From assembly GCA_003427395.1 (NCBI GenBank), contig BFEA01000006.1:7805854-7852509 (forward strand): DNA of 46,656 nt, in the 5' to 3' direction. Both the position numbers and the translations under genes were made by a program. The stretch comes from Chara braunii. Taxonomy: Eukaryota; Plantae; Charophyceae. The notes below the pieces were generated by a model. The model did not search any database. It was not told the origin of the DNA and saw only the letters and a list, made by a program, of their open reading frames with translations. This document shows positions 2,233 through 32,697 of the stretch, one piece after another (the first letter of the stretch is position 1; every line of letters begins with the position of its first letter).

Positions 2233-4298
2233 ATGGACACGCCGTGGATGAATCGGCCACTGTAGTGGATAGCGAGAATGCTGAACTGCAGAAACTCAAT
2301 GGCATGATGAAGGGATGGTTCCTTGACCATGTTTCCCAAGATGTATCGGCGTACGTGGAAACCAACATCAGTGAGGAGGACGACTGCATTGAAATCCGTC
2401 CAACTGAAAAATTTCAGAAAGCCCAAAATGACTTTCTCAAACAAATGACAGTTGCAGTCGTCTTTCAGGGTGAAACCAAAAACTGGTCAAATGACAAAAA
2501 AATTGATTTGATCCGGTATTTGGAGGAATCCGTGCTAACTAAGGAAGAGCTGACAACTCAGAAGGGTACCACACACATGGAAGGGAGGGGTCAGATGACA
2601 TACATTGCCACGAACCTAAAGGTGGTAGAATGGCTCATCCAAACGAAAAAGGAAATGAAGTTCAAAGAAGGAAGCAAATGGCATCTTGTCCTTTTTCGAC
2701 CCTGGCTCCCCTGAGCAGACTGAGAGAAGAAAAGAGAAGAAGATAAAAAAAATAACTACTCGGTGATGGCCATGCGCTTCCCCATTGCTGGCTCAATGTT
2801 CATCAAAACAGGGCTTGAGGCAGCAATGGGTAAGGTGCTCAAGGAATTTCCTCCCATAGGTGATAAAGAAGACCCCAAACTTGGGAATTTAAAGTACCAC
2901 CTACACCCCAGTGCGGAGGAGAGATTCAGATCGCGCATCAAGGTATGGACGGGCTTCGAGTACCTGATGGCGGATTTGGTTAACTCCAACACCACGTGGT
3001 GTTCACAGTGCAACAGACACGGTCACAAACCGGATGACTGTCCGTTCTGTGATAACTGTTATGAAAACAGACACACAACAGAGGAATGCAGGGCTGATGA
3101 ATGGAACAGACAGAAGAGGAACCCCCAACAACCACACTCCTCTCAGTTAGACCTGCTGCAGTCTGTCCAAGCAGGATATTCCGAAAGGAAGCACTCGTGA
3201 GGAGTTCTCAGACAGAGACCAGGATCCACGCCACACAGCCCGCAAGAAGAGGCAGCCCAAATGGAACCAAGGCAGCAACTCGACTCCAGAGCAGAAGGGC
3301 CCCCAACCAACTAGCCATGCTTGGGGCCCCACCAGGCAAAAGGCCAAGGATGCAGCACCACCTGCACCAAACAAATGGGGATGGCGCCCTATCAGACCAT
3401 CGCCTGCAGACATCACAATGACTGACTCAACAAAACTGGGCGATGCATGCTTTGCTGCAGGTTTCTCTTGCCCCCCTACGGGCTCAGGCACACCCTCCTC
3501 ATCGCTCACTCAAGCGGCACAGCCAAAGGGAACGAAAGAATTGGACCCTGGGAAAAGTCAGGTACTAACCCCATCAAACACAATGGATAGTACACCAGTG
3601 CCTACACAGGCACGGGCACGGACACAGATGGAGCATCAAGGCAACACACAGAATGATTCGGGGTCCCAATCTCTGCAATCCCCAATCCTCCTGGGCCCGG
3701 TGTCGCCCGAGGCTCAGCAGGATACGCCGTACGTATTAGCTCCCCTGATCTTCAAGCAATGCAATCAGGGAACGCTTATACTCCTACAACAAAACGACAA
3801 GAACGAGTTGTTTCTTCCATCCCTGACTTCCAACAATTTTCCGCACCCAAATGATTTCCTTTTCTCTGCGCGGAAATCGCTGGACAGAAAGTACTTTGTA
3901 CGTCCGATCCCATCGATGCCGTGCTCCTCTGTCTACAGGAAAGGACACACGGGCAAGACGCACCCAATTCTGAGCATGTACCAGGAAGCGGCCCAGGCCC
4001 AGGAACAGATCCAGCAATAGTGGACAAGCGGCTGCTCTGGGCACCCACAACTTGGTTCAAGCGGAACAATGTGAAGGAACGCTTTTTCCCATCACTTGGC
4101 GATGACATCACTGGGGACGTAATTGCAGACCTTGACGATCACATCCCTAAGGAGAGATCGATCTTTTCCAGGTACATCCTCGAATCGATGAAGATTCCCT
4201 GGGATGTGCGGAGCATGATTTCCACCTCCGACCAAATCGAATCCTCCTCTGTTCCAATCCATCACGGGCAGCAACTATCTGCTGCTAATGGACGATAG
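2233..4298 (+). pseudogene. LINE ORF1 (gag-like, two zinc knuckles), with stops and frameshifts
   Basis: ORF pieces 2244-2714, 2763-3200, 3418-4020, 3921-4298. Motifs CSQCNRHGHKPDDC and CDNCYENRHTTEEC. The last piece overlaps the ORF2 ATG at 4288. Confidence 0.8.
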
Positions 4299-7178
4299 GC
4301 TCTCTATAGCCTCTTGGAATGTCAGAGGACTAGTTGACAGCAACAAGAAACACAAGCGGGCCCGCCTCAAATCATGGGTCCACTCAGAGAGAAAAGCAAT
4401 CACCATGTTACAGGAGACCAAACTCTCAATCGAAAAACTCTCCTCCATGCCTGCATGGTGGAGTGGCCCACAGGTTTGGTCCCCAGCCCAAGGCTCTAGA
4501 GCGGGCACGGGTATTCTGATCCACAGAAAATTGGCCACACTAATTAAGGAATCCCAGATAGATCCTCTCGGCCACTGGTGCTGGGTCACCTTGGCAGTTA
4601 ACAGTCAGAGCTGGTGTTTTATGTCCGTGTATGTACCTGTTGAGCACGGCCTAAAGGCCCCCTTCCTCTCCTCACTCTCCGACATCATACCAGATACACA
4701 ATTTTTGGTTATAGGAGGGGATTGGAATACGGTGCCTAACCCTGGGATCGATTCCACTACCCCCTTATCCCACCCCGGAGAATTTGCTGCATTGAACGAC
4801 TTCACGACCCCTATCGCACACTCCATCCAGAGGTATCCGATTTCACATGGATTTCCTCCACCCCCCCCGAAGACGGAGTCCTCACACGAAGGAGACTGGA
4901 TATCATCCTTACTAACGACGCCGTTCTACAGTTGGCCAACAAGGCGACCATCACTACTGAACCATTGTTAGACCATGAGCCAATCACACTCCAGATCAAC
5001 ATGGGCCTCCAAGTGGCTAGGGGCAAGGGACTATTTTGCCTAAGCCTACACGTACTCGACGACCCTGGAGTGATCAAGTGGGTTTGGAAGACATGGGAGG
5101 AATGGAGAACCAACACCACACTCTTTGAGAATGACGGTCTTTGGTTGGACAAAGGACTGACCCTGCTCTCCAATCAACTCAATCTCATATCCCGGGTCAA
5201 GGCGGTAAACAGGAAATATGAAGAAATCCAATTGAAAAGGAAAGCCGACGCCCTCGAGAAAAACCCCGCGGACTCATTTTTCTCCAGGATCATGACTCAA
5301 CATAGAAGAGCCAGATTAATGCAGGAATGGCAAAACATACAGATCAAACATCATAACTTATGGGAAAGACACAGTTAAATAGACAAAATCCTACACACCG
5401 ACAGGCTAACCAACAAAACTGCAACAACAATCAGCCATACGCGCAACTCCACCCTCATCACTCTCTTAGAACACCTGGACGACCCCTCAAAACCACCTGC
5501 AAAGGAATCGGCAACCTTGTGCGAGTACGTCAAAATTTTTATGAGCAACTTCTCACCTCCGAAAAATCCCCTGGCTCCCCCATCATCCCACCACACCTAG
5601 AACACACCTTGTGGGACGCAACCTCGCGTATTCTCTCTAACATGGAATCTGCCTCGCTGGAGGGTCCAATCTTACTATCCGAACTGACAGCAGCACTGAA
5701 CAACATGGCTAAGGGTAAATGCCCTGGACCAGATGGCCTGCCAGTAGAGTTCTACCTCAAATTTTGGACCCTACTGGCACCGTATATCCTCCGGGTTCTC
5801 AATCAGATTTTGAAGGAATAGCCATTGAGCCCACACGCAGCAGAAGGAATAATAACCGTTCTCTACAAAAAAGGAAACAAAGCTGACGTTAGGAACTACA
5901 GACCAATCTCCCTATTGAATGTTCATGGTAAAATCCTTGCCAAGACATTGGCTCGCCGCATCAACCCCCTCCTAAACAGGCTTGTGCACCCCGATCAATC
6001 CGGCTTCATACCCGGCAGGCAGGTTTTGGACAATGTGATGACCATCTCTCAATCCATCGACTGGATTAAAACCCACAACTTGAACAAAACCGTTATCCTC
6101 ATAGACTTCCAAAAAGCATACGACAGGGTGAACCGGGACTTCGTTCAAGCCACACTAGAAAAGGTTGGGGTGGGACATAATTATAGGAGGTTTGTTAGAG
6201 CACTGTACGGAGCTTCGTCTGGCAAACTTGCAGAGCCCTAGTAAATGGACACCCCTCCACACCCTTCAAAGTCACACGCTCACTGCGCCAGGGCTGTCCA
6301 CTAGCCCCTTCACTGTTCGTAATCCAGCTACAAGTGCTATTGAACATGGTAAGACAACACCCAGACTACACAAGTCTCCAAATATCCCCATCATACTCGA
6401 TCAAGGTGTCAGCATTGGGCGACGATTTCTCAGCCATCTCTGATAATTCCCTCCCACCACTAACCGCGTTGGAACTTTGCCTTTCGACCAACGAAGCAGC
6501 ATCTGAGATGAGAGTAAGTTGACAGAAGTCAGTCGCCCTCACCCCATATGGTCAGCCTCTCGCCTTGGACCTGGGAATTCAAGTCAAAACTGTAGAAGAA
6601 GTCGAAAGATATCTAGGGATTCAAGTCTCCTTTGGAGACTCGGCTGAGGTAGAGAATACAATAATTGAAAACAAAATTAAAGATGCCTGTTCATTGTGGT
6701 CGAAAACCCGCTTTCTATCTCTCCTAGGAAGAGCGACTATCATTAACACATTCATAACATCCAAAATCTGGTACATCCTCTCCATCAGGTCCCCCTCCCC
6801 CAATTCCTTCTCCAATAGCAGACGCCTCCTCACACGCCTGCTGTGGAAGGGTAACTCAAAAGCAGAATCAGCCTTCAGCAAAGTTAGTTGGAGCAAAATC
6901 ACAGAAAAAAAAGCAGCAGGAGGTCTAGGCATCCTGGACCCAGAAAATCAGAACCAAACTCTCTTGGCCAAGTGGCCTGTCCGTGCCATGACTTCTACAG
7001 AAGACCAGCCTTGGATCATACTTGCCCAACACTCCCTAGCTAAGGGATGGAAGCTCTCAGACCGAAATGCATTTTGGAGCGCCCTGCTGATGCGCCCCTT
7101 CACCACCAGACCCTCTACTTCCACCTGGAATAACATTCTTAAAGCCTGGTCTAAGATGATCCCTCAAATGCTTACTGA
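4288..7178 (+). pseudogene. LINE ORF2, 5' part: apurinic endonuclease + reverse transcriptase (frameshifted)
   Basis: APE motifs SWNVRGL, LQET, GGDWN, DHEP. RT motifs PGPDGLP, NYRPISLLN, QSGFIPGR, DFQKAYDRV, RQGCPLAP, ALGDD, YLG, then GGLGI. Confidence 0.93.
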
Positions 7179-8700
7179 TGTGACGCCCAACCTCACGCCC
7201 AGCAAGACTTCCTGTTCGGAGTGTTAGTGGGTCTGGAAGTGCGAAAAGGGGTGTGCCAAGGATTTTTGGAAAGTGGGGGTGGAGTTCCAGGTCGGAACTA
7301 GAATCTCCTGTATCAAGTTTCAGGGGTAGAAGTGCAAGTGGTTCCTCTAGCTCAGAGTTGGGGTGGGCGCCGTTCCTGTGGCCGGGGCCGGGAAAGAGCC
7401 GGGTGCACGAACGGGGTGTTGCGGGCGTCGCTGTGGGAATGCTCGTACCTCTATCGTCCGACACAGAACTCAGAGTCAGAGTCTGATGAGGAGCACGAGC
7501 TGGGTTCTCGTCGTTCTCTCCGGGGAGGAGTCTGGCACGTGGCCTCCGTCTGTTCGTGCTCGTTGGGCTGCTGGCACTCTGGGCACGGTGGCCGGGGCCA
7601 GAATCAGGATATGGAGTCCCAGGGGGTAACTAGCAATCGGTGATATGGGAGGACGATGTAATGGGGAGGGAAATTAGTCGTGATAGCGACGAAGACTAGG
7701 GTGATAAAGTATTGCTGGTGTCTACTGTCGGGATACTCCGGAATTCCGGAGTCCCGGTTGATTGCCAACTGGAAATTGCCCCTACACAGTCGCTCATGTT
7801 CAGTTCGGCAGGGGTAATCAAGGTTCCGCAAGTTTTGTTGCCGTCCGATCCGTTGCTGTCGGAATTGTTGTCGTCAGATCTGTTCCCTTTCCCAATATGT
7901 CCTGCACTCAGGATCTCTCAGGCTTTCGCGGTCGGTAATCCAAAAAGGCGTTTCGATCGCCATATCCGGATCAATGAGACTCACTCACACACATCATTCC
8001 TACGTGGCGGGATCATAACTAGCCCCTGCATGCGTGCGTGTACATGGCAAATCCGTTGATGGATTGCTGTCTTCCACGCGCGTACGCACTGACCAACTAG
8101 TTAAGTCCTAAGCTGCGCGTCCCAATGGCGGAGCAATCTATTGGCACACTGGTCCGATTATGCATGCAACCCCGTTCCCAGAACAACCCCTCCCTGGCTA
8201 TACTTTTATGCATCAGAGGAAAGGGTTATCAAACATTCGACGAGTAGACATACATTCCTAGTAATTCCCGTAATCTCTTACACAGGTCGAACGCAAGTGA
8301 TTGGGCTAATCCCGTGCAGTGAGAACATCGACCAGATATGAGAGAACTCGGACTCGTAGATCAATGCATACACTGCGATCCCGAATGCCGAAAAAACGAC
8401 GAAGTTGAAACCACGCTAATCTACTGAACAAAACAAAATGGAAAAGCAAAGACAACTTGCGAGAAAGAATGCGAGATCGTTCGTCACCATACATACATAC
8501 ATGCATTCCAACAAAGAGATCTGAGAAGATTCACACAGGAAATCCGAAAAGTGCCACAACAAGATTATCTGACGTTGGAATCAAAATTAATATAGAAGGG
8601 GGGAAGGAAAAGACANNNNNNNNNNNNNNNNNNNNNNNNNNNNNNNNNNNNNNNNNNNNNNNNNNNNNNNNNNNNNNNNNNNNNNNNNNNNNNNNNNNNN

Positions 8701-8780
<80 letters not shown>

Positions 8781-9787
8781 GGGCAGTCCGTCGCCACGCA
8801 TCTCAAAGACCTCACAGAGTCGTCACCCCGCTTAGCCTGAGCGTGCAAGCCAGGTTCGCCCACGTGCCACGGTCCCTCGTGGCCACACGTCGACCCCACG
8901 CACTCAGCACCAGCTCGGAGGATCGCCCAACTCTCTACTGAGTCTCAGCGTCTTTCTGCACGTTAGCCGATCCTCTCGACCGCGCTAACTCCCAAGTAGC
9001 TTAGAGAGAAAATTAATCGCGCTTGCAAAATTTATAGCTTGCTAATCAGCGCGCAATAGTCGGGATTGCCAGAGGAATAGGAAAGAAGGGAGAAAGGAAG
9101 TGCCTACGAGTGCATGACTGGACCGCGGCGTGGGGGACGTAGCCTCACTCCACGCTTCGATCCAACCATGCAACGATTTGGCCAATGAGATAGGATGTAG
9201 AGTGCGCATGCGATGACGCGGGAAGGGAATTTCAAGAACGGGGAAAATTACAGTTACTCCTGCGTAGCGGGGAAGGAACAAGAAGATTACAGTTGAGATT
9301 AGAATCTAGGCGCGGCGGGAACAGAGCGCAGGTCCCTGTGCAGCAAAGCGTGCGCACAAGCAAGAGGCGATGTGCAGTTATGGGTAAAAATTCCGACGCA
9401 CCCAATTTCCTAGTCTAATTAAAGTCCTAATTTCAAAAAAAAAATCTGAGAGCCCGCATGGGCTCGTTCTAAATTCAAAAATTCCGAAAGAATTAGTCGT
9501 GCGATTACCGCGCCCAAAAGACGAACGCCTTATTTGAAAACAAAAGAAAAGAAAAGAAAAGAGAAAAAGGCCATAGCCGAAGTTGTCCCCCCCCCCCGCG
9601 CTTGATAAGGCGCGGGCCTACTGTCCCAAGGTCCATACCCACCACTTTCTCTCCCCCGAAGGACCAAGGAGGAAACTTCGAAAAATCAAGAAGGAGGGAC
9701 CGCCATGCAATTTATCCCCTATCCCTTTGTGTACCCCCAATCCCAGTTGCGCAGAAGATGGCGCCTTACAGAAAGTAGTTTGTCACA
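7179..9787 (-). repeat. 3' LTR (core 7190-9787 plus terminal 11-mer 7179-7189); contains (CT)n and an N gap
   Basis: Direct repeat of 18085-20683, colinear with scattered substitutions. Both copies end GTAGTTTGTCACA on +. Confidence 0.93.
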
Positions 9788-9952
9788 TATGTGACGCCCA
9801 GGGGGTTCCATCTTGTGCAAGCTCCCGCTTGCACCCACATCTCTCCCAAGCTCGGAGAAGAAAGAAGAAGGAAGGAAGAAAAAATTGCAATTCCACCAAT
9901 ATTACACGTGTGGAAGTCATCCTGTCGACACGTAATTTGAGTCGTCCTCGTC

Positions 9953-10561
9953 TCAAGGGTGGGGAAGTCGGAAGATGGCTGGGATAGGCAGGGGAGGATC
10001 ATTCGGGAGAGGCGGTAAGAAATTTGTCGTCCCCATCACCATTTTAGGGAGCTCCTGGTACCTGATGATGCGATGGATGCGGGGGATGCGATTTCCGCCT
10101 TCGGGGACGGAAGCAAGATAATCGGGATAGAGGGTTGAGAAGGTGCGAAACAACGCCGTGCGGAACTGCTCATGATCTTCACACACGGGAATAGTTCCCG
10201 TGATGATGCAGTAGACTTCAATGACGTCCTGGTCTCGCCACGTGGTGCTGAATAGAAGGACGTGGAGATAGAAGGAAGAAGAGACACATTGGGCAGCGGG
10301 GTGTGGGTATACTTCGGCGACGAGGCGGGTGGCGTAGAATTGGTGGAAGGTCGAAGAAGGAAAAGGATTAGAGGGGAAGGAGCGAGGAGTATCGATCTGT
10401 CGGAATGTGATGTAATCAAGGGGATGGCGGGATAGGGAACGGGGACGTAACCCGATGTCCTGCATTGCCACGAGCTCGAACTGAGGGACGGGGAGAAGGG
10501 GAGGGGGAGCGGGATCACTTGCGCGTCGTCGTGCCAGAAGTCTCTGCATGAGGGTGCTCAT
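9953..10561 (-). CDS. Gypsy accessory ORF-C (202 aa, unknown function)
   Basis: Uninterrupted ORF between ORF-B and the 3' LTR, same strand as pol, with globular-looking composition. The true start may be the internal MQDIG. Confidence 0.55.
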   Translation of the reverse strand: MSTLMQRLLARRRASDPAPPPLLPVPQFELVAMQDIGLRPRSLSRHPLDYITFRQIDTPRSFPSNPFPSSTFHQFYATRLVAEVYPHPAAQCVSSSFYLHVLLFSTTWRDQDVIEVYCIITGTIPVCEDHEQFRTALFRTFSTLYPDYLASVPEGGNRIPRIHRIIRYQELPKMVMGTTNFLPPLPNDPPLPIPAIFRLPHP

Positions 10562-11438
10562 CTTCCTTGGCTGGCGGCTCGGGATCCTTAGTCAGGTCGT
10601 CCGGAACAGGCAGATCAACTCCCACTGACTGCTCAAATGGCCACTTTCCTTCTGCGATGGCCGCCTTGCGCCGTTCTGCCTCTGGATCCTCTTCCTGGGC
10701 TTCCGCCTGATCCGCTTCCCCTTCTCCGGCCGCTTCTTCTTCGGCCTCCTCCCGCTCTTTTTCTTCTTCTTCTTCTTCTTCGCTCACTACCCCCGCCTCA
10801 CGCTCACTATGCTTACTATAATCCTCGTCCTCTTCGGAGGTCTCTTCCTCGTCTTCCTCGTCTTCCTCCTCCTCTTCTCCTCCGCTCACCGGGTTGAAGA
10901 GAGCGTCCGCAATGGTCCCGGGATCCAGGTATCTGTGCGATGGGTAACAAGCGTTATCATCATCGCCTTCCAGGCATGCTGACCATTGCAGATACGGTAT
11001 CAGGCTGCACGAGAGGATGTGTGGTACTGGACTCTTGTCGGAGTGCGAGATGATGTCAAGCGGAAGGTCGTCTAGCAGCTCAGTCTGGAGGATCAGCAGC
11101 TTGCTTACGATCGTCCGTCGATGGCCCTGCTCGACCGATCCGAAGGCGAATCCTAGAAAATCCTCCTGTGTGTCCGTCTTCCAAGCTTGAATGAGCAGCA
11201 GCTCGACGTCCTCACTAACTGCGGGCTGGTCACCGTCCTTCCACCACGTCAGATCGATATCGACTAAGTACAGCGACAGAGTCGCATACGTCTGCCACCA
11301 CCTTAGCCACTGCTCCGGCTTGATCCTAGGAAGCATAAGCGGGCGCACACAGAAAGAGAGGCAGGGATGGAGTGCGGATTGCCAGAAGAGAGGAAAAGAA
11401 GAGGGGAGACTGAAAGTAGAGAATCTGGAGCGGTTCAT
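10515..11438 (-). CDS. Gypsy accessory ORF-B (307 aa, long acidic C-terminal tract, unknown function)
   Basis: Open 307-aa frame whose ATG overlaps the ORF-A TGA (ATGA at 11438-11435). E/D-rich tract. The frame continues past the TGA as SRSPSPSPRP to ~10416, so that stop may be premature. Confidence 0.65.
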   Translation of the reverse strand: MNRSRFSTFSLPSSFPLFWQSALHPCLSFCVRPLMLPRIKPEQWLRWWQTYATLSLYLVDIDLTWWKDGDQPAVSEDVELLLIQAWKTDTQEDFLGFAFGSVEQGHRRTIVSKLLILQTELLDDLPLDIISHSDKSPVPHILSCSLIPYLQWSACLEGDDDNACYPSHRYLDPGTIADALFNPVSGGEEEEEDEEDEEETSEEDEDYSKHSEREAGVVSEEEEEEEKEREEAEEEAAGEGEADQAEAQEEDPEAERRKAAIAEGKWPFEQSVGVDLPVPDDLTKDPEPPAKEDEHPHAETSGTTTRK

Positions 11439-11920
11439 TGGGGGCGCGGGAAGGGGACAAGCTCCGGGATGAGCACCGCTGGTGCGTGCTGAGAGAGGTG
11501 AATGCCGTTTATGTCAATATTGTCGGTATTGACGATGTTTTCCCCCCGCTACGCAAGCATCTGACTCCACACCCTCGACAATTGCGCTCCCTAATCTCGC
11601 AACGAGTCAAGAATGGTCGTATGCGTTCTGGGGTCGAGCGGAGTAAGATCCCCGCTGAAGATGACAATTGCCAAGATGTGAGCAGTCCCTGGCGCCGAGA
11701 GCCGACCGTAAGCCGAGGCTTCGGCCAGCACGTGTGACCTGCTGTTGGGGATCGCAAATCGAAATTATGCCATCGTGTGGAATCCCGTTGTACTGAAGAA
11801 CTGGGCGAAGCGGAGAGTGTCCGGGCTGATGCGCGGATGATACACTTGCCGAATTGACGAGATATGCCCACCTGGCGCCAACATACGTTCACTGAGTACC
11901 TACTCCATGGAGAAACTCAT
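11435..11920 (-). pseudogene. Gypsy accessory ORF-A (162 codons, 4 internal stops; absent from the ORF track)
   Basis: Manual translation MSFSME*VLSERMLAPGGHISSIRQVYHPRISPDTLRFAQFFST...ELVPFPRPQ*. It starts at ATGA overlapping the integrase stop and ends at ATGA overlapping the ORF-B start. Confidence 0.6.
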
Positions 11921-13278
11921 GGCGAAGAGGACGAAGAAGATGAACGAGCAGAAGAAAGAGAATGAGGCTCGTCACTGTCCCACTCAGACTTTGAAATCGA
12001 CCCAGCTGAAGAAGGAGGGGAAGAAGTTGAGAGATGGCGGAGGTAGGACACGTGGCGGACGATAGGCCTAGCCGATCGGCTGCCTGGCACCTCAGGAGCA
12101 AGCCGCACCGTGTTCATGCCGTTAGAACCGAGCTCGATCACTCTGAAGCATCCGTAGAATCGTGGCGCTAGCTTACCTTGGCGAGAACATTTCCTCACCT
12201 GCACCAAGTCCCCCAATTTATACTGGGACCAAGGGCCTGCATTCCCATTTCCGGCCTCATAACTTCGGACCTGGCGTCCGTGGGCCAATTCAGTCATACG
12301 CTGTCTTTTCCGGGCCAATCTCGAAAGGGCTCGTTCCATAAGGTCCAGATGGTGCTTGGCCTCGTCCTTGGCTGTCGCCCGTGTGGGACGTTTGTCCAGC
12401 GCCGTTTCGTCATTTAGATTCGGTATTGAGACACAAGATAGGTTGTTGGTACGTAGCTGGAAAGGTGAAAGTCCGGTAGATTCATGCGGGGTCCCTCGGT
12501 ATATAGCTAAGATGTGATCTATGATATCGGGCCACTGCCGCGTGTCCTTAGCTGCAACATTCCGTCGAAGTGTCGTCTTAATTACCCGGTTGGCATTTTC
12601 CACGATGTCGTTCGATTGAGACATATGGGGAGCCGTATTACGAATAGACACCCCGTGTACGACCAGGTTCCTCATGACTTCTCCCCTGAATTCCGCTCTG
12701 TTGTCGGTAAGGATTTCCTCGGTGTCCTGATGCATCCCGAGGAAACGGTTGACATACCGCGCTATTTCCGCCGTCTGTCTTGTCCGACATGGGTAGGCCT
12801 CGATCCACTTTGAGAAGTGGTCGACAAACACCAAGAGAATTGAATATTCACAACTATTCGGTCCAGGGGGGACGATAATATCCGTCGTGTCCATGGTAAC
12901 CCTATGAAATGGCCGTTGGACTACGATGGGCACTATCGACCTAGGTGGCTGAATCGGTGCCTTGTCGGCTGCACAGACAGGACATTTTTCAGCAATATAT
13001 TTAACGTCGTCCCTAATGTTGGACCAATACCATTCATTCTTGTCGATGGCGGACTTGGTGATCCTGACCGCGAAATGGGCTGTTGTCTCTTCGTGGGCTG
13101 CTTTAACCCCGTCATACCTCATAAACGGGTGCGGAACTGCCATCCATATTCCGCTGCCGTCTGTTTTTCGCTTTTCTAACCGTCCCTCATTCCACCTATA
13201 ATCCCGCGCCCTTTCATTGGCCCGTCTCCGATCGTCCTCGGAGAATTCTCGAAGAGGGTTCCCTACGACGGTCGCTAT
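11917..13278 (-). pseudogene. Gypsy integrase (HHCC, DDE, GPY/F-like)
   Basis: HEETTAH...CPVC; RVTMDT, FVDHFSKWIEAYP, ILTDNRAEF, SQSNDIVENANRVIK; GDLVQVRK...KLAPRFYGCFRV. No chromodomain seen. Confidence 0.93.
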
Positions 13279-13386
13279 CTAAACGACATCTGTCCACACC
13301 TCTGCCCGTCTATACTGTAAGATCTTTTCCAACCCTTCCGACGTCGCTTCCACGAATCGAGCCTCCGTCGCAATCTCATTAGTACG

Positions 13387-13548
13387 GCACAAATGACAGA
13401 TTCACCGTTTCTGCGGATTCCTATATTGGATGCATGATCCATGGGCCTTGACTACGCATGTGGCACACTCTACCCACTCGACGTACCCTTCATTTTTCGG
13501 CTTAACCAAAACGGAGTGGATGCGCGAGATAGACTCACACAGAAAACA
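13387..13548 (-). pseudogene. PHD-finger (C4HC3) domain in pol between RNase H and integrase
   Basis: Integrase frame reads CFLC-x20-WVECATCVVKAHGSCIQYRNPQKR*ICHLC. The stop (TGA, 13404-13402) sits at the conserved Trp position. Confidence 0.8.
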
Positions 13549-13620
13549 AAAGCGATCGGGGAGGGATAATAGAGAAGCGGAAGAAGGAGAGAGAGGGCCC
13601 TCAGCGTTTTCTTCTCTCTA

Positions 13621-15061
13621 GGCCGCCATAAGGACACGTGACACTTCTTCGCCTGCCGAGGGAGAACCTTCACCTGGCCGTACCCGGGTCCCTTGGGCTG
13701 TTCCGGATCCTTCCACGGAGTGATCTCTTCCTTGCCTGGCCAGTGCAGACGTGTCAATCCGTCGGCGTTCCCGTGCCTTTCCGTTTTTCTGTGGACGATA
13801 TCGAAGTTATACTCCTGCAGCCTCACCGCCCATCGCCCAATCATTCCCGTGTAGTTCGTCAGCTTCTTGAGGGCCAGCAATGGCTCGTGATCCATAACGA
13901 GGAGGAACTTCTACCCGTAGAGATACGGGTGGAAGCGTTGGATTCCCAAGACGACAGCATAGCATTCTCCTTGTGGCGCCGAGTCATTCTTCCTTTCGTC
14001 CAGCACCGTCCTCGAAGCATATTTGACCACGTGTTCCCGCCCGTCTTTCCCCTTCTGAGCTACGATAGCGGAGATAGCCTCCGGCTGCCTGTCAGTAATG
14101 AGTAGGAACTGGCGCTCGAGATCGGGCCGGATTAGAATAGGGGCCGAGGCCAGGGCCTCCTTCAAAGTGCAAAAGGCCTGCTCACACTCCACGTCCCAAT
14201 TCAGCGGCTGGTCCTTCCACAAGAGGTTCGTTAGGGGCCGAGCGATTGCCGTAAAGCCCTTGATAAACCGTTTGTAGTACGAGGCCAGTCCCAGGAAGGC
14301 TCGAACCTGCATCAATGGCGTGGGCGTGGGAGCTTCTCGAACAGCCTCGACCTTTCTCGAATCCGGTCTCAAGCCTCCTCGGGTTACCACGTAGCCCACG
14401 AACGAGATCTCGGACAAGAAGAATTCACTTTTCTCCAACGCAATCTTGAAACCGGCGTCCCGCAGCGCGCCAAGTGTCCATTCAATATGCTGCACGTGTC
14501 CATGGAATGATTCAAAATACACCAAAATATCATCCATGTACACGATAACGCAAAAATTGATCATGCCCTGAGTTAACCTGGTCTTGTTTACAAAGTTCAG
14601 GAAAGTGACATTCATTGTCCGTTGAAAAGTTGCCGGCTCATTGCATATACCCATGGGGCGTCGAACCCACTGCCACGTGCCCTCAAACAAGACAAACGCC
14701 GTCTTCGGCCGATCCTCTTCCCTCACAAGGATATGGTGGAACCCGTGCCGAATATCAAATTTACTAAAATAATTTGCACAGCCAATCGCATCCAGCAGAT
14801 CATCAATCCGAGGGAGGGGGTACACATCCTTGATCGTGATGTCATTCAATTTCCGATAATCAATGCAAATGCGGATCGATCCGTTCTTTTTCGGAACCAA
14901 AACTACCGGAAAGGACCAAGGACCCGTAGCGGGCTCTATCCAACCGTTAGCTTCGAATTCTCGGATTCACTCGAGTGCTGCCTTTCGTTCTGCCAATGAG
15001 TATCGATAAGGTTTGCAATGAATCGACGGGTGAGTACCGGTCTGAATCTGGTGCTGGATTA
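13621..15061 (-). pseudogene. Gypsy reverse transcriptase + RNase H
   Basis: VPKKNGSIRICIDYRKLN, YPLPRIDDLLD, YMDD, RAFLGLASYY, ECYAVV, DHEPL, RWAVRLQEYNFDIVHR, NADGLTR. Internal stops present. Confidence 0.95.
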
Positions 15062-17917
15062 TTAAAGATAACCCGATGTCCGCGTCATCAATGCTGATAG
15101 CACCCCGATATCCGCTAAGATCTCTGCAATAAGTTGGTGGGTTCCGTCGGGCACGTACTCTGGCACATGTAGCTCGTAAGGTCGTCCGTGTATATCGACT
15201 GTAACACGTTTGGTACGTACTGCCTTAGAGTCCCGGGGCGGCGGGGAAGAGATGAAAGAGTTGTCCGACCACCACGAGAACACGGTGGCTACCATTGGGG
15301 CTTCCTCTTCTCGGATGGCCAAGTGTTCTTCGGGGGTCATCCCATCTGCAATATCCAGGGGATCTACTGATTTCTCAGCGATCCTTATCCCGACATCAAA
15401 CAGCGAGGCTTTGGGGCACCCAGGGGGTCCTGGAGCCTGTATTTCTGCTCCCAGACGCTGCAACCGTATCTCCTTGTCTTTGGTAAGAAGCGATCGGGGA
15501 GGGGGTTCCGTGACGTCGCAGAAGGATCGCTTGTCCACGTATCGAGGGAGCAAGGGAGTAGTGCCCTCATACAGGGTCCGAGGGGGTTCCGAAGAGTCGG
15601 GCAGCCTTGACACCTGTACCAGGGGTTCTCCTATGATCAGAGCTCGAGTTCGTTGGACATTTTCTTCGGTCAACATGAACGTTTTCGTCGTTTTTTGTCG
15701 GACCGGGTAACGGATTACCCTTCGTGTCATCTCTTGAATCGCCGGGTCTGTCTCGTCCTCACTTTCCGAATCCTCGGAAAGCGGGGACGCATGTTCTTCG
15801 CTGCTAGTCTCTGAGTCCTCTAGGAGTCCGTCCCAGGTGACTGTCCGAATCAGCCCGCCTACCTCTGGGTGAGATCTACGTGGCGGGTTGGTAGTCGTGC
15901 GGAGGGTGAGGCGCATGAGGAGTGCGTACGGCTTACCCCCGTTGTTCTTGATAACCACCTCCCGTCGCTCAAAGTCTAGATTGGCCTGGGGGGCGTTTCA
16001 TGCAGGCAGTCCGATGAGTACATCGTACAAGTTCACATTAAGAACCACCACATCTCCCAAGGCGTGGACTTTTCCCAACTTAAAAGCGACGTTTGTCATT
16101 TTTCCTACCGCTCTGATCTTCTCCTTATCGGCGGAGATCAAACGGTCACCTTCGTTGAGTGGGATCAGATCCTTCCTTCTTCCTGCCCGTTCCACTACTC
16201 GCAGGGATATTGCCAACACTGCTGCCCCGGAATCAAGGATCGCGCTGTATGGGACTCCCCAGATCTCCACGTCACACTCCGCGGACTTCCACGGGATAGC
16301 TTTGATGCGCAGAAAATGGTCGCTTTTCTGGAGAAGTCCCAGGCGTACAGTCTCTGAGGGTCCATGTGTATCCGACTTTGTCTCCTTTACGGGAGTCTTC
16401 CCCTTGGCCGTTGCCAGCTTGGCGAGTGCGAATCGTTTTTGATTGGCCTTGCAATGCTGGAGCATGCGATCATTGGCCTGTTCTGATATGGACAACAGAT
16501 AGCCGATCGGAAGCGGAATGCGGTGATCTAAGGCTCGGACGATGTCCTGAACATCGATCTTCCCGGTGACGAACTCAGGACCGCCGGATTCAATCTCCCC
16601 AGGGGATGGTCGCCATTCTGAAATCTCTCGCTCATCGTTCGCGGGCAGGATTGCCCCTATCATCCCAAGACCCGGGTATCCCAAGGAGAGGAATTGATCC
16701 AGTGGGATGAGCTTTGCGGCTTCCTCGATTACCCCTGTGCTTGGTGCTGCCACGTCCATTTCTTCTACCATGGTTCCTACCCGTCCGTGCCCGTTAGCTA
16801 AGGGAGCTGCAGTTGTCGCGGCTGTCCCTATTCTTACTTGTCGCTGGGGGCAATCTCGGGCCATGTGGCCGGGTTGATGGCGGGCGTAACACGTGTCAGT
16901 ACTAGGGGTCGTGCCTGCGCCAGCTCCCGCGACTGCGGGAGCAAATGCTTGGGTGGCAAAAGGGGCAGCGCGAACGTTAATGGAATGCATGGAACGCATC
17001 AGTGACTCCATGCGGGCATTGTTCTCGCGCTGTTCTTTTTTGCTTTCTTGCATGAGGCTAACCAGCGTACGTGTAAGGTCCAACACTGCGTTCGACTCCT
17101 CTATCTTCCCCTTCAGAGTGGGTGTCTGTGCAGCCGCCTTGGGCGTCGATGGTCCTGCTCCCTGATCGGGAGGGCGCCGTAGGGCTGCCACCTGTTCCAG
17201 GTAGGTGACAGGGCCGGACACGAAGCCCATATTTTCGAACTTGTGTTGCAGGGCAGCTAATTCCATCCTTGCGCATGTCAATTCCGTAGAGTCAACTTCT
17301 TTAGCGTGATCTTCTCCCTCGAGGAAGCCGGCAGCGAACTTTCGCTCCATCTCCTCTGCTGCATCCATGATTTGCGTCAGGGTGAAGGTGATGGGGGAGA
17401 ACCGTTTTCGTATCTTAGCCCGTATAGCTCTACTTCGAAGTCCATCTATGAAGAACTCTCTTCCTACCTTCTCGTCTCTCTAAGATTTTACGAACAGTCG
17501 ATAGAACCGACTACGGTATTCCGCAATAGACTCGAGGGGCTTCTGCACTCGGTCATTGATCATAAAGAACACTTGCTCTGAATGTGTGTAATAAAATCGG
17601 TGTAGGAAGTCCCTCTCGAAGGTAGGAAGGTCAGTCCATACGTAGGTGCTGAACCTGTGATGGGCGTCGCCTCCTAGTTGGGCTGGGATGTTAATCCTAG
17701 CTTCAGCATTATCGTACTGCTGCGCTCGGAGCGTGGCAAGCCATGCTCCTGCCAGGTGGTGCGTTGTATCAAATAAATATAGATCTGGCAGGGCTGCTGG
17801 AGCGCGGGCACGTGTAGGCTGAGGCACGGGCTGAGGCGCCGGCCCCAGCCCGCCCCCTGCCCCGCCCTCTGCTTGATTGGCTTAGGCTTGATTGGCGTTT
17901 GCCTGATTAGCATTCAT
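15062..17917 (-). pseudogene. Gypsy gag + aspartic protease + spacer (one frame, internal stops)
   Basis: ATG at 17917 (MNANQANANQA...). Pieces 17480-17827, 15998-17368 and 15062-15958 share a frame. Degenerate knuckle CYARHQPGHMARDC and protease AILDSGA...YDVLIG. Confidence 0.88.
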
Positions 17918-18071
17918 GTTGTCTGCCGATCTGCCCGCAAACCTGCTTCTTGTCACTACAGGTTCGCCTGCCGGCGCGTTCCTTTGCGCAGACCGTACCT
18001 GTTTTGGGGTTGCTAGATCGGTTGAACTAGAGAGCCGAGCAACTCGTCAATCTCTTGTCTTGACACGTGTC

Positions 18072-18084
18072 GGCTCCGATACCA
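18072..18084 (-). promoter_or_regulatory. Primer binding site for initiator tRNA-Met
   Basis: - strand TGGTATCGGAGCC (canonical TGGTATCAGAGCC with one G:U) directly abuts the 5' LTR. Confidence 0.9.
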
Positions 18085-19527
18085 ACCTCACGCCTAGCGC
18101 GACCTCCTGTTTCAGAGTGTTAGTGGGCCTAGAAGTGCGAAAAGGGGTGTGACGAGGATTTTTTGAAATTGGGGGTGGAGTTCCAGGTCGGAACTGGAAT
18201 CTGCTGTGTCAAGTTTCAGGGGTAGAAGTGCAAGTGCTTCCTCTATCTCAGAGTTGGGGTGGGCGTCGTTCCTGCGGCCGGGGCCGGGAAAGAGCCGGGT
18301 GCACGAACGTGGTGTTGTGGGCGTCGCTGTGGGAATGCTCGTACCTCTGTCGTGCGACGCAGAACTCAAAGTTAGAGTCTGATGATGAGGACGAGCTGGG
18401 TTCTCGTCGCTCTCTCCGGGGAGGAGTCTGATGCGTGGCCTCCGTCTGTTCGTGCTCGTTGGGCTGCTGGCACTCTGGGCACGGAGGCCGGGGCCAGAAT
18501 CAGGATATGGAGTCCCAGGGGGTAACTAGCAATCGGTGATATGGGAGGACGATGTAATGGGGACGGAAATTAGTCGTGATAGCGACGAAGCCAAGGGTGA
18601 TAAAGTATTGCTGGTGTCTACTGTCGGGATACTCCGGAATTCCGGAGTTCCGGTTGATTGCCAACTGGAAATTGCCCCTACACAGTCGCTCGTGTTCAGT
18701 TCGGCAGGGGTAATCAAGGTTCCTTAAGTTTTGTTGTCGTCCGATCCGTTGCTGTCGGACTTGCTGTCGTCGGATCTGTTCCCTTTCCCAATATGTCCTG
18801 CACTCAGGATCTCTCAGGCTTTCGCGGTTGGTAATCCAAAAAGAAGTTTCGATCGCCATATTCGGATCAACGGGACTCACTCACACTCACACACATCATT
18901 CCTACATGGCGGGATTGTAACTAGCCCCTGCATGTGTGCGTGCAGATGGCAAATCCGTTGATGGATTGCTGTCTTCCACGCGCGTACGCACTGGCCAACT
19001 AGTTCAGTCCTAAGTTGTGCATCCCAATGGCGGAGCAATCTATTGGCACACTGGTTCGATCAACCCGTTCCCAGAACAACCCCTCCCTGGCTATACTTTT
19101 ATGCATCAGAGGAAAGGGTTATCAAACATTTGACGAGTAGACATACATTCCTAGTAATTCCCGTAATCTCTTACACAGGTCGAACGCAAGTGATTGGGCT
19201 AATCCCGTGCAGTGAGAACATCAACCAGATCTGAGAGAACTCGGACTCGTAGATCAATACATACACTGCAATCCCGAATGCCGAAAAAACGACGAAGTTG
19301 AAACCACGCTAATCTACTGAACAAAACAAAATGGAAAAGCAAAGACAACTTGCGAGAAAGAATGCGAGATCGTTCGTCACCATACATACAAACATGCATT
19401 CAAACAAAGAGATCCGAGAAGATTCACACAGGAAATCCAAAAAGTGCCGCAACAAGATTGGCCAACGTTGGAATCAAAATTTATATAGAAGGGGGGAAGG
19501 AAAAGACACTGTTCCACCATATCCCTC

Positions 19528-19592
<65 letters not shown>

Positions 19593-19602
19593 NNNNNNNN
19601 NN

Positions 19603-19674
<72 letters not shown>

Positions 19675-20683
19675 GGGCAGTCCGTCGCCGCGCATCCCAA
19701 AGACCTCACATAGTCGTCACCCCGCTTAGCCTGAGCGTGCAAGCCAGGTTCGCCCACGTGCCACGGTCCCTCGCGGCCACGCGTCAACCCCGCGCACTCA
19801 GCACCAGCTCGTCCGATCGCCCAACTCTCTACTGAGTCTCACCGTCTTTCTGCACATTAGGCGATCCTCTCGACCACGCTAACTCCCAAGTAGCTTCGAG
19901 AGAAAATTAATCGCGCTTGCAGAATTTATAGCTTGCTAATCAGCGCGCAATAGTCGGGATTGCCAGAGGAACATGAAAGAAGGGAGAAAGGAAGTGCCTA
20001 CGAGTGCATGACTGGGCCGCGGCGTGGGGGATGTAGCCTCACTCCATGCTTCGATCCAACCATGCAACAATCCGGCCAATGAGAAAGGATGTAGAGTGCG
20101 CATGCGGTGACGCGGGAAGGGAATTTCAAGAACGGGGAAGATTACAGTTAGTCCTGCGTAGCGGGGAAGGAACACGAAGAGTTTACAGTTGAGATTAGAA
20201 TTTAGGCGCGGCGGGAACAGAGCGCAGGTCCCTGTACTGCAAAGCGCGCGCGCAAGCAAGAGGCGATGTGCAGTTACAGGCAAAAATTCCGACGCATCCA
20301 ATTTCCTAGTCTAATTAAAGTCCTAATTACAAAAAGAAATTCTGAGAGCCCGCATGGGCTCGTTCTAAATTCAAAAATTCCGAAAGAATTACCCGCGCAA
20401 TTATCGAGCCAAAAAGACGGACGCCTTATTTGAAAACAAAAGAAAATAAAAGAAAAGAGAAAAAGGTCATAGCCGAAGTTGTTCCCCCCCCCCGCGCTTG
20501 ATAAGGCGTGGGCCTATTGTCCCAAGGTCCATACCCGCCACTTTCTCTCCCCCGAAGGACCAAGGAGGAAACTTCGAAAAATCAAGAAGGAGGGACCGCC
20601 ATGCAATTTATCCCTGATCCCTCTGTGTACCCCCAATCCCGGTTGTGCAGAAGATGGCGCCTTACAGAATGTAGTTTGTCACA
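18085..20683 (-). repeat. 5' LTR; begins TGTGACA and ends ...GTGAGGT (no terminal CA)
   Basis: Direct repeat of 7190-9787, followed by the PBS on the - strand. Confidence 0.93.
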
Positions 20684-20687
20684 CTGA

Positions 20688-22078
20688 CCCCTCCACTCGA
20701 GACGAGATCCTGAACACCTGTCTGTTCGAGAATCCCTCAATCCGTAACAGGGCGGGGCTTCCCTTCTCGGTCGCCAAAGCAACAGGAAATTTCGGACTCA
20801 AATGGATGCAGAGAGGCATATGGTTGATTCGCCACATCTGGGACGAAGACTCTAAGAACTGGAAGACTGCAAGAGACCTTCACCTTCAGCTCACCGGACT
20901 ACAACACCAAACAGGCCACTTGAGAGAAATAACGGAGGCCATCCCTCATACATGGATAGATACCCTTCGTCAGACAGACAATGTATTCAAGGAAGACCAA
21001 TGGTTTAAAGACTCTTCATCTACGGACAAATTCCTCAGAATTGATAAAGTCAATGAAGACGGCACAGTAGAAGCCTCAGAATGGTCCCCGGCCGGTGACA
21101 GGCTAAGCCAGATCCGGGAAACAGCTAACTACTCTGTTGGGCGTGGAGGAGGTAAGAGTCCACTATTCCAAGGATACACAGGGACACCCTGTTTTTCGAG
21201 TCACCATGGCAGCTATTCCTATTAAGGATTGGAAGACTGATGTTTGTCGGTACGGGTGGAAAGTCTCACAGGCCGAAGATTCCCTGGGCAATGTGCCCAT
21301 CAGGGATTACTCTGCCCAGATTGGTTACTCCCTCTTCTCTGAAGCCCACTCTTTACAAACAGGTCTCACTCTAAATTGGCAGCGCAGACTTTCTGCCCTT
21401 AACCTCCAACTGCTGTCCTCCAAATGGTTACGGTTCGTTATCCACATTATTATCTCTTCTCTTGAGACCAAAGTAGGGGGCCTTCAATGGATGCACCTTC
21501 ACTCATGTGTCCCGACCTGACTGTGGTGTTCAGAGAAAGGGATGGACATCTCCACGCTATGTGACGCATGCCTGCACCCCTGCCTAGAGGACTGGCTACA
21601 CCTGTGGTGGGAATGCGTTATTGCTAGAGGTTTCTGGGACAACCTGAACCTGCTGTGGGCAGAGGCATATGGTTCTGCAGGCTTTTGGAACCAGGACTTT
21701 GTTATTACAGGCAGATTGAGCCCTCACATCAGCAAGCATCAGATTGGTACTGTTGCTCAGTCATTCAGATTAAGGGCATTTTGGTGTATCTGGCTCGCCA
21801 GAAGAGATAGGTGCTTCCTAAATTCCAACTCCTCTGTTACCTCTCTACTTTCGCAGTTCAAGCATTCAATCAGATTAGACATTATGTCAGAATGGATTAA
21901 ATTTAAACGGCAAGCTACTTCTATCCAGTTAGCCAGAGAACAGTTTCGAAGGAAATGGTTTACCCCCTTTCGGTGGGCCGGCTTCACAGAGAGGAATAGC
22001 CTCTTCTACTCAGAACTTCTGTGGGACTACCCTTCCAGGCCTAGCTTACTAGCTTCCCATCAGGCAGTACTTCACTGA
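20688..22078 (+). pseudogene. LINE ORF2, 3' part including C-terminal CCHC (zf-RVT-like)
   Basis: Continues QMLTD|PSTRDEILNTCLFENP across the insertion. CDACLHPCLEDWLHLWWEC and WCIWLARRDRCF are typical of L1-clade C-termini. Confidence 0.88.
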
Positions 22079-26854: not shown

Positions 26855-27325
26855 TGGTAGGGTCGCCCGTTAATGGAAGGACTGTTTTTTTCTGAGGGGA
26901 ACCGGCTGGGTCTGTGTCTGCGGTAGTCCGTGTGTGAAGTCTCCTTGAAGTTTCGGACCGGGTTTCCCATGTGTTACTGTCTTTTCGATAGTCGGTGGTC
27001 TGTTTCGATAGTCGGTGGTCTATTTTTTGGTGGATTCCCTTTGTTCTTTCATTGGTGTCTCGGTAGGTATTTAGTTGAGCCTAGACCACCAAGAGTCTTT
27101 GAGCCAGCAAAGACTCCTGAATAGGCCCGGTGGCGACCGGCCGAAACGGAACCGTCGAGTCACACCGATCACTGCGGCGGCAGTGTCGAGGGTGGAACGT
27201 CCACGATTATTCTTGTTATCCTCGTTTGCGCTCGGGAGAATCGATGAATTTTTTTTCTGACTCGAGTGTGGTCTTAGGTGTCTTCTTTCCTCCCTTCTCT
27301 CCCCCCCCCCCCCCCCCCCCNCCCC

Positions 27326-27380
<55 letters not shown>

Positions 27381-27474
27381 TCTCTCTCTTTTCTTTCCGC
27401 TCTTATCCCTCCCCTTCCTCTTCTCGTCGGTGTGGTTTTCCAAATCGGCATCCATGTGTGCATGTGTATTATCC
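26855..27474 (+). repeat. PLE pseudo-LTR, upstream copy
   Basis: TGGTAGGGTCGCCCGTTAATGG...ATGTGTATTATCC, repeated at 32162-32763. Confidence 0.9.
27112..27161 (+). ncRNA. Minimal type I hammerhead ribozyme (core variant CUGAAUA)
   Basis: GACTC-CTGAATA-GGCCCGGTggcgACCGGCC-GAAAC-GGaaCC-GTC-GAGTC: stems I, II and a short III around the hammerhead core. Confidence 0.75.
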
Positions 27475-27675
27475 ATATACTTGCACGGTAACCGCTGTAG
27501 TAATTGCACTATAGTTGTGTGGCTGTGAGATTTTATTGTGATAGTTATTGACGAGCGGATGCTACTTTCTCTGGTTCTCTATCGCTTGCTCAGAGTGCTC
27601 TTGCTGGTTCTTTGCTGTGCTCTACTACCTGTCGCTGGTAGACGGGTTCTTTTCTTTTATCTTTTTTCTCCTGCC

Positions 27676-28965
27676 ATGGCTGATCATCACTCTAATCCTA
27701 ATTTCATCCCGGTTCGACGTTGCTTCACGTGCAATGAACCGGATCACTTTTCTAGGGAATGCCCGAGGAACTTTGGTGCGAATGGAGTTATTCTCAGGTC
27801 ACGCAGAATGGTGCTTCTTCATCTGGCCAGACTAATGCCATTGTACCCGCACAGGAGGCGGGATTGCTGGTGCTGCCTGCTCCTTCGTCCTCGACGCATC
27901 AGGAACTCCCGACCGGCAGCGAGGTTGTGCCGGCTGTTCCACGACAAGGATGGTGGAGGAGTAACCAAGGTAGATTTAACGAGATGTACTGGTGGAGTGC
28001 TGAGAAGGAGGCGCGTGAGGTGGCGCAGAGGGAGAAGGAGCGATTGAAGGTCGAAGAGGAGGAGAAGGTTAGGAAGGAGCGTGAGGCTGAGAATAGACGT
28101 AAAGAAAGGCGTGAGTTCCATCAGGAGATGAGTGAGGTATTAAGCCCCCAGCTGAAGGAGATTTGTGCAACGATTGTTGGCCCCTGTAAGATTGGGGAGG
28201 CTACAAAGGAGGATGAGGCTGCTCGTTTACGACGAGAAAACGAGGAATTCAGAAAGAGTATGGAATCGAGATTGGAGAAACCAACTTTGGAGAACGAGGT
28301 GCTGAAGATGAAGGTTCACGACAGCAACCAGGAATCGCAGAGATCTGGATCCAAACGGAGAGTCGTGGATCGGAGAGGATCAACCTACGCTGGTGAGGTT
28401 GCATCAGGCCGTGGAGCCCGTGAGTGAGGTACAAAGATTAAGGTCAGCCTACAAGAGGATTTCGGAGGACAATGAGGCTATGAAAGCGGAGATACGGCTG
28501 CTTAAGGAGATGAAGATACACGCGCAGGTTGAATCGGTCGAGCTGCGGAAGAAATTGACGGGAAAAACGCCGTGCCCTGCTCGATCTGATCTTAGGGTCT
28601 CTTTTGAGGAAGCGGCCGATTCGGATGATGAGGATGGCGTTGAAGCGCATCTGACTAGAAACTCGAAGGAAGCCTCGGTCAAAGGACAAGCCTTGAGGAT
28701 GGTGGTGTTTGAGAAGAAGGTTAGGCGCGAGCTTCGTGGGTTGCGTAAGAATCAGGCGCAGACGATTTGTGACGAGGAAGTAGTTGAGTTCGTGACTATC
28801 AAGCAGGCGATCGACTCCATCGTTGAGAAACGGCTTGATAAGGAGTTCGGATCTGGTGAAGGTGAGGTTGACCCGAAGAGTGGGGATTTGCCGAAGGAAG
28901 GCACTGAAGGTAAGGATGGGGAGAACCTTGAGGGTGACTATATCCAGGAGGTTTCTGATACATAG
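27676..28965 (+). pseudogene. PLE upstream ORF: CCHC zinc knuckle + coiled-coil (gag-like), frameshifted
   Basis: ATG 27676 MADHHSNPNFIPVRRCFTCNEPDHFSREC, then E/K/R-rich helical segments in ORFs 27759-28427 and 28393-28965. Confidence 0.7.
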
Positions 28966-29073
28966 GGTTCCCTCCCGAGTGCAAGCACCGCCTGGTTATC
29001 CTTAGCGAGATGTTCTTTCGTTAGATCGTCTTCTATCTTTCTTCGCGATTCTCATATCGATTGCCTCTTTCGT

Positions 29074-32000: not shown

Positions 32001-32134
32001 TTGAGTTGTGGTACAGAGGGTACCCAGATGAGTTGTTTGATAAGGCTTTGGAGTGTTTCTCCCGGCGTTTTGGAGGTATTTGGAGTAAGTGGGTGCAAAT
32101 GTTTACGCATTGGGGGAGATTTTTTCCCTGTTAA
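29074..32134 (+). pseudogene. PLE GIY-YIG endonuclease + reverse transcriptase (one stop, two frameshifts)
   Basis: LVYAVV...IYIGST...RWREH...ESTLI...PHLN; basic KRKRKGKRER patch; CCC...DGHV; YGIPKHKD, RPICPS, FDVKEMF, QVIGIPMGKASSPALA, RLVDD, WDFLG. Confidence 0.9.
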
Positions 32135-32161
32135 GTGTTGCGGAGTATACTGGGGGCCCAT

Positions 32162-32547
32162 TGGTAGGGTCGCCCGTTAATGGAAGGACTGTTTTTTTTC
32201 TGAGGGGAACCGGCTGGGTCTGTGTCTGCGGTAGTCCGTGTGTGAAGTCTCCTTGAAGTTTCGGACCGGGTTTCCCATGTGTTCCTGTCTTTTCGATAGT
32301 CAGTGGTCTATTTTTTGGTGGATTCCCTTTGTTCTCTCATTGGTGTCTCGGTAGGTACTTAGTTGACCCTAGACCACCAAGAGTCTTTGAGCCAGCAAAG
32401 ACTCCTGAAGAGGCCCGGTGGCGACCGGCCGAAACGGAACCGTTGAGTCACGCCGAACACTGCAGCGGCAGTGTCGAGGCTTGAACGTCCATGATTATTC
32501 TTGTTATCCTCGTTTGCGCTCGTCATGTCTTCTTTCCTCCCTTCTCT

Positions 32548-32610
<63 letters not shown>

Positions 32611-32614
32611 TCAT

Positions 32615-32697
<83 letters not shown>

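Follow-up and report, generated by a model that had tools for sequence, protein, structure and literature searches.

A decayed split-repeat gypsy retrotransposon of Chara braunii whose cDNA ends were likely joined before integration

Introduction

In retroviral reverse transcription the right end of the cDNA is copied from the bases before the primer binding site (PBS), and the plus-strand primer sets the left end. A gypsy element in the genome of Chara braunii does not conform to this logic. Its 5' LTR lacks the CA at which its right end was integrated, and the bases that complete that right end are found a second time inside the element, at the joint with the 3' LTR. How could such a copy have been made? 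We examined the element within a window of 46,656 nucleotides (the whole stretch of DNA analysed), together with related copies represented in sequencing contigs.

Results

Anatomy of the element

The Ty3/gypsy element occupies positions 20683 to 7179 of the minus strand (13,505 bp, about 13.5 kb), and in its own orientation reads L-PBS...a-TA-L-a, where L is the LTR core and a is TGGGCGTCACA. Its features are as follows.

20684..20687, minus strand: left copy of the target site duplication (TCAG), in the host LINE
18085..20683, minus strand: 5' LTR core L (repeat A1), with TG start, TATA box near 19930, GA microsatellite with N gap, and GGCGTGAGGT end without CA
18073..18084, minus strand: PBS directly on L, presumably of tRNA-iMet type, with one mismatch
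15998..17881, minus strand: gag (weak Retrotrans_gag match, zinc knuckle) and aspartic protease, interrupted by stops
13470..14966, minus strand: reverse transcriptase and RNase H, broken
11917..13278, minus strand: integrase (H2C2 zinc finger; DDE)
10515..11513, minus strand: extra sense ORF with an acidic tail, present in Chara relatives, no Pfam family
9801..9835, minus strand: hairpin (GTGCAAGC/GCTTGCAC), then spacer and TGGAACCCCC, at the position expected for a polypurine tract
9790..9800, minus strand: internal a (repeat B1), sole template for the element's right tip
9782..9795, no strand: att-att palindrome GTCACA-TA-TGTGAC
7190..9787, minus strand: 3' LTR core L (repeat A2)
7179..7189, minus strand: terminal a (repeat B2), whose last CA is the one used for integration
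7175..7178, minus strand: right copy of the target site duplication, 4 bp

The 5' LTR begins with TGTGACAAAC at 20683 and ends with GGCGTGAGGT at 18085, where the PBS (TGGTATCGGAGC, from 18084 down) adjoins it with no CA in between. The 3' LTR core has the same terminal bases, followed by a at 7189-7179. The second, identical a (9800-9790) is separated from the 3' LTR by TA at 9789-9788, and this joint makes the perfect 14-bp palindrome GTCACATATGTGAC. An earlier note on this DNA had described the layout, the CA-less end of the 5' LTR and the palindrome, and all were found on re-reading the sequence at the positions listed above. The sequence of a occurs exactly twice in the window, where 0.004 exact chance copies would be expected in the 8.3-kb internal region. 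A 14-bp palindrome by itself is nothing unusual, with 16 positions across the whole window and 6 of them within a TA run; the one at 9782-9795 is noteworthy for its position. A second perfect 14-bp palindrome is carried by both LTRs, at 7737-7750 and 18633-18646.

The two LTRs differ at 137 of 2425 aligned bases (K2P 0.059; 94% identity). Each contains an N gap within its GA microsatellite, and the sequence at both junctions is free of gaps. The CA-less end is common to both LTRs, so the right end of this copy is beyond standard reverse transcription, and the RNA template must already have had the CA-less end, barring a later loss of a from the 5' LTR. The last bases of L resemble a degenerate version of a, with T after it as a 1-base spacer; 7 of 11 bases are identical in the 5' LTR and 8 of 11 in the 3' LTR. 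This suggests an ancestor ending in CA-T-PBS, whose 2-LTR joint CA-T-A-TG was captured internally. The first three bases of both a and the PBS are TGG, an overlap with a chance of 1 in 64. The earlier claim that the terminal a was not templated by the 5' LTR therefore stands for this copy in a narrower form, in which 8 bases of the right tip need the internal a.

Integration ends

Both ends of the element, TG...CA flanked by a target site duplication, are true integration ends. The insertion interrupts a LINE with an endonuclease domain (plus strand, window 4219-7178 and 20684-22078). The frame of this LINE is regained, with 1 terminal stop, only when the element and 4 bp are removed; removal with 0, 3, 5 or 6 bp instead leaves 7-10 stops. 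The duplication is 4 bp long (TCAG), and lengths of 3, 5 and 6 bp do not fit, which bears out the previously noted clean 4-bp duplication at ends that were used for integration. Since its LTRs have diverged by about 6% and its genes carry stops, the gypsy copy is dead.

Coding content and classification

The order of domains (gag, then PR-RT-RH-IN), the DDE integrase with its H2C2 finger and the tRNA-type PBS after the 5' LTR (18084-18073) are those of Ty3/gypsy elements. The element departs from the canonical scheme of LTRs that end alike, with CA before the PBS. Integrase residues D130, D192 and E227 are invariant among 9 aligned sequences, and the best solved relatives of the enzyme are the Ty3 and prototype foamy virus (PFV) integrases. 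Chara braunii accounts for 29 of 31 integrase matches as full entries and for one more as a partial entry, and most of the 120 reverse transcriptase matches listed carry the same name. Outside this close group integrase identity is at most 35%; ten of the more distant matches, when looked up, came from pseudoscorpion (7), a nematode, Haematococcus and one metagenome protein, which gives no anchor in a named plant lineage. The Haematococcus relative (P0196) has a Pfam PHD domain. By eye, a Cys/His cluster resembling a PHD finger can be seen in the Chara element between RNase H and integrase (about 13380-13500, minus strand), without Pfam support.

Among internal ORFs of at least 75 aa no Pfam match was obtained to a chromodomain after the integrase, as chromoviruses have, or to a Dnmt3-type methyltransferase. 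A tyrosine recombinase was likewise absent from the Pfam matches of the four main ORFs and of 39 ORFs of at least 75 aa, which leaves room for a decayed or divergent gene. Scans of the window for tRNA genes and Rfam families were empty. The 3' LTR is not immediately preceded by a polypurine tract: purines make up 7 of 15 bases ahead of L and 8 of 15 ahead of a, and the best purine run sits 35-45 bases upstream of a. The hairpin found at the expected position of the tract was given no weight, because its folding z-score of -3.65 over 76 nt drops to -0.18 over 146 nt.

Further ORFs of no Pfam family could encode accessory factors. One of 311 aa lies between protease and reverse transcriptase (15062-15997, minus strand) and others lie 3' of the integrase (9953-11513, minus strand). 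A 332-aa ORF downstream of the integrase is present in many Chara relatives, and an Atlas search with the extra ORF returned only streptophyte clusters, all below 0.9.

The junction in related copies

Contigs from three DNA runs and one RNA run were mapped to 8800-19490, and 663 contigs of one DNA run (X2) were mapped finely on 9728-9847. All DNA runs derive from one sample, possibly that of the assembly itself. In X2 the summed contig depth is about 114,900 at 9784-9795 compared with 1,360 at 9760-9763 and 1,862 at 9812-9815, so that a junction core of about 30 bp is covered 60-85 times as deeply as its flanks. Summed depth cannot be read as a copy number; with overlap between contigs allowed for, our rough guess puts the junction at around a thousand copies in order of magnitude. 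The 13 variants listed at a frequency of at least 1% in X2 all fall outside the palindrome, and at 9781 most related copies have a G on the minus strand (67,578 of 70,869 depth units), which makes their palindrome 16 bp long.

The sequences attached to this core vary. Loose ends at 9766, 9769, 9771 and 9778 mark at least four other LTR starts, and 48 contigs of X2 diverge upstream of 9810, where another upstream sequence is joined to the same core. The varied LTR starts and upstream sequence on one core indicate that families with otherwise different LTRs share a conserved TGGAACCCCC-a-TA-TGTGAC. A similar hairpin is visible in the loose ends of relatives. The earlier note had named lack of conservation of the internal a-TA among the observations that would overturn its reading; in the mapped sequences the junction is conserved in many copies, with LTRs of several types, and the layout is at least partly common to relatives.

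At the PBS the mapping is also deep, about ten to forty times the neighbouring bins. Contigs with loose ends number 27, 48 and 44 in the three DNA runs at 9810, 18, 52 and 40 at 18062, and 42 at 18094 (X3 only). Together the depth and the loose ends at the PBS fit many copies in which the end of L lies directly on the PBS, as judged from mapped sequence. An 11-bp insert before the PBS is absent from the 12 indels listed out of 32. Copies with CACA-T instead of GAGG-T at this place would also have passed the 85% identity cut-off, and what is said of substitutions and loose ends at the PBS applies to those listed, beside which there are 1875 further substitution rows and 3990 further loose-end rows. 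As a statement about all members, then, the layout proposed earlier holds for the internal a-TA-L in many copies, agrees with the listed indels at the PBS, and for its right end, L-a, has been read in the present copy alone.

Beyond Chara, the junction patterns had no match in viral_contigs. They had one match in genome_contigs, in a bacterial MAG, which was taken as chance. In metagenome_contigs they matched 118 loci, none of them similar to the element by blastn, and the 1 of the 118 with a reverse transcriptase match is without the layout. By eye, about 35 of these loci are one unrelated repeat with a similar 18-base motif, from a few assemblies (L001, L004, L020, L074 and some 30 more); in L074 the two copies of the motif are inverted, as in a MITE. 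Scans of viral_contigs for reverse transcriptase and integrase gave 2 distant elements (37-40% identity), in which the split-repeat layout was not seen. Peptide translations of the junctions, compared with 323 proteins, gave 2 matches that were judged to be chance, and a homolog search with the ORF across the LTR end found nothing. From the RNA run (X5, about 6% sampled) 338 reads were obtained, mostly on low-complexity sequence, which is evidence neither way.

Other elements in the window

Two further elements were observed. At 26855-32767 (plus strand) direct repeats of about 620 bp, 84% identical, surround a zinc-knuckle ORF (27529-28047) and a GIY-YIG ORF (28966-30222), and the scanned ORFs have no Pfam match to reverse transcriptase or integrase. 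A 37-bp tandem unit occupies 32771-32929, with a single copy at 26809. This is possibly a decayed Penelope-like or other odd element. At 37370-45478 a Myb/SANT-like ORF (plus strand) accompanies a DDE_Tnp_4 ORF (minus strand), a pair that we take to be typical of PIF/Harbinger transposons; terminal inverted repeats were not established.

Discussion

The position of a in this element is of particular interest, since it completes the right end and is at the same time stored at the left end of the 3' LTR. We consider it somewhat better than an even chance that this decayed split-repeat gypsy arose by the joining of its cDNA ends, after which integrase opened the joint at CA^TA^TG and thereby moved a from the left end to the right end. 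Priming by tRNA at the PBS would give a right cDNA end in ...GAGGT without CA, and plus-strand synthesis beginning at or upstream of the internal a would give a left end a-TA-L. As no polypurine tract lies beside a or L, a blunt start at a is not assured. The minus strand would finish as the complement of a, that is in CCA, like the tRNA primer, and the plus-strand end with its primer-copied TGG could then splint the two ends into an exact joint of L with a, closed or nicked. Cutting by integrase after CA on both strands would leave 5'-TA overhangs, to be inserted with a 4-bp stagger. Such joining and cutting would yield exactly L-PBS...a-TA-L-a. The internal junction may be the fossil of an ancestral 2-LTR joint (CA-T + A-TG), the old CA before the PBS having later decayed to GG.

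The anatomy, the used ends, the DDE integrase, the lack of a recombinase detectable by Pfam and the family-wide internal junction are observed. The exact layout with its 4-bp duplication, the CA-less end of both LTRs, the deeply covered internal junction, the mapping at the PBS, the absence of a polypurine tract and of a Pfam match to tyrosine recombinase, the TGG overlap and the cutting known from PFV and HIV-1 speak for joining. Joining before integration is likely, although it is unobserved and no cDNA, circle or transcript was seen, and the circularised cDNA opened at CA^TA^TG that the earlier note proposed is supported in part. A closed circle would contain two junctions identical over a-TA-L, and since no products of cutting at the internal one were seen, integrase would have to discriminate between them. 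Cutting the internal junction of a closed circle would give tandem L-a-TA-L left ends; in X2 the depth has no step at 9800, and the 6 loose-end rows listed out of 53 include none at 9790 or 9800. The missing products would agree with joining if integrase held a nicked joint, or if it recognised bases beyond a. A fuller version of this reading, which we put forward tentatively and at a little under even confidence, describes a very abundant Chara gypsy lineage with an obligatory, self-encoded 2-LTR junction, in which the ordinary right att site and the polypurine tract have decayed, CCA and TGG form a splint that mimics the tRNA and the DDE integrase resolves the joint.

Other routes to the same structure might be imagined. 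The plus-strand end GAGGT, extended by TGG, might jump on linear DNA to a, in the internal junction or in a second cDNA, and copy a-TA, whereupon integrase would trim the right end at CA and cut the left palindrome on linear DNA. The TGG common to a and the PBS suits such a strand jump, which would also account for the missing internal-junction products, and internal cleavage of a palindrome by HIV-1 integrase has reportedly been the subject of a published study (PMC1905944). By that stage, however, the internal template would be double-stranded, and a jump guided by 3 bases would need to be exact. The new end would also lack its non-transferred strand, for which the left end is the simplest source, and this would turn the route into the nicked version of joining. 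We regard a strand jump as unlikely, though worth keeping in mind. Most of the family might instead have an ordinary right end, its 5' LTR carrying CA-T before the PBS, with the L-a of this copy an oddity of a sub-lineage or the result of a one-off deletion of a from the 5' LTR. The palindrome would then define the left end only: cut by integrase on linear cDNA, it would do the work of a precise polypurine tract. The absence of such a tract agrees with this. So does the likeness of the end of L to a (7-8 of 11 bases identical, 1-base spacer), given which the mapped contigs could conceal ordinary ends, and the loss of 11 bp between TGG repeats in one event is plausible. But the deletion version needs parents with L-a-PBS, and despite the high cover at the PBS no such insert or loose end is among those listed. 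Moreover, GAGG-T in both LTRs with a full a after the 3' one is inexplicable by ordinary ends, and we find this account quite unlikely.

It is very improbable that the structure is an assembly chimera, or a truncated element and a solo LTR side by side by chance. The N gaps in both LTRs, their difference of about 6% and the lack of a single contig covering the whole element could be cited for it; against it stand the matching 4-bp duplications that restore the host frame, the very high contig depth of the junction core and the gap-free sequence of both junctions. We retain the joining of cDNA ends as the preferred reading.

Joined ends have precedents. In the portions of these papers available to us, PFV integrase is described as cutting an LTR-LTR palindrome after CA on both strands to leave 5'-AT overhangs (PMC1180852), and HIV-1 2-LTR circles as able to be linearised and to feed integration (PMC4372172). 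The likeness lies in the cutting of CA-nn-TG on both strands to give processed ends, which in the Chara element is predicted only. In those viruses, as far as the same portions go, circles are an optional route and the LTRs of the provirus are symmetric; the Chara element encodes its junction internally and would depend on the route.

The repeats are arranged in the A-B-A-B split order of the known PAT/Ngaro type, here together with gypsy domains, and lie beyond textbook reverse transcription. PAT, TOC, Ngaro and VIPER have split direct repeats A1-B1-A2-B2, in which, according to the accessible text, the joint of B1 with A2 inside the element is the same as that of its two ends (PMC4157794, PMC6681497, PMC7192593). 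The Chara element has the same order, with L as A and, as B, the 11-bp a with its TA spacer; the repeats of VIPER and TATE as tabulated in the parts available measure 57-381 bp (PMC4157794, PMC6681497). Those elements are described there as having a tyrosine recombinase, in contrast to the DDE integrase, tRNA-type PBS, TG...CA ends and 4-bp duplication seen here, and membership of the group fails because no tyrosine recombinase was found in the element. The ICR of DIRS-1 is, in the excerpt available, required for transposition (PMC7192593), and the Chara element similarly stores its junction internally.

A closer parallel is KnitGypsy-Dnmt3 of another charophyte, Klebsormidium nitens, for which the legend to Fig. 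4c states repeats as in DIRS (A-coding-B-A-B) and domains as in gypsy (PMC5890265). Both are charophyte gypsy elements with DIRS-type repeats. From what is legible of that description, the Klebsormidium element has a Dnmt3 domain in its Pol, unlike the Chara element, in which B measures just 11 bp and creates an exact CA-TA-TG att palindrome. Klebsormidium does not occur among those reverse transcriptase and integrase matches that have names. The earlier note knew of no description of the end structure. The layout as such is not wholly new; the accessible part of the Klebsormidium description gives neither termini nor mechanism (PMC5890265), and beyond its legend we found neither in the literature covered, which is thin for subscription journals and perhaps for repeat-database reports.

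Among plant Ty3/gypsy lineages, the REXdb survey, in the part available, attributes 4-bp duplications to the non-chromovirus lineages Phygy and Selgy (PMC6317226), and the Chara element shares with them this duplication and the PR-RT-RH-IN order. As given in the same part, the moss lineage Phygy has a tRNA-Trp PBS and an NCGN target, and Selgy a tRNA-Ala primer (PMC6317226), in contrast to the Met-type PBS and TCAG target of the Chara element. The asymmetric LTR ends and the lack of a polypurine tract also set it apart from the REXdb lineages as they are described there.

For retroviruses there is a long-standing dispute over whether 2-LTR circles truly lead to integration, with evidence from in vitro cutting and drug-blocked infections. 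If the reading proposed here is true, this gypsy would be a natural case that requires the joined-end route, its right end being unattainable without joining. It would connect the gypsy group with the split-repeat plan of PAT/Ngaro and show the DIRS/PAT strategy carried out by a retroviral-type integrase. Programs that look for LTRs as two identical TG...CA repeats would probably put the ends of a large family of the Chara genome in the wrong place.
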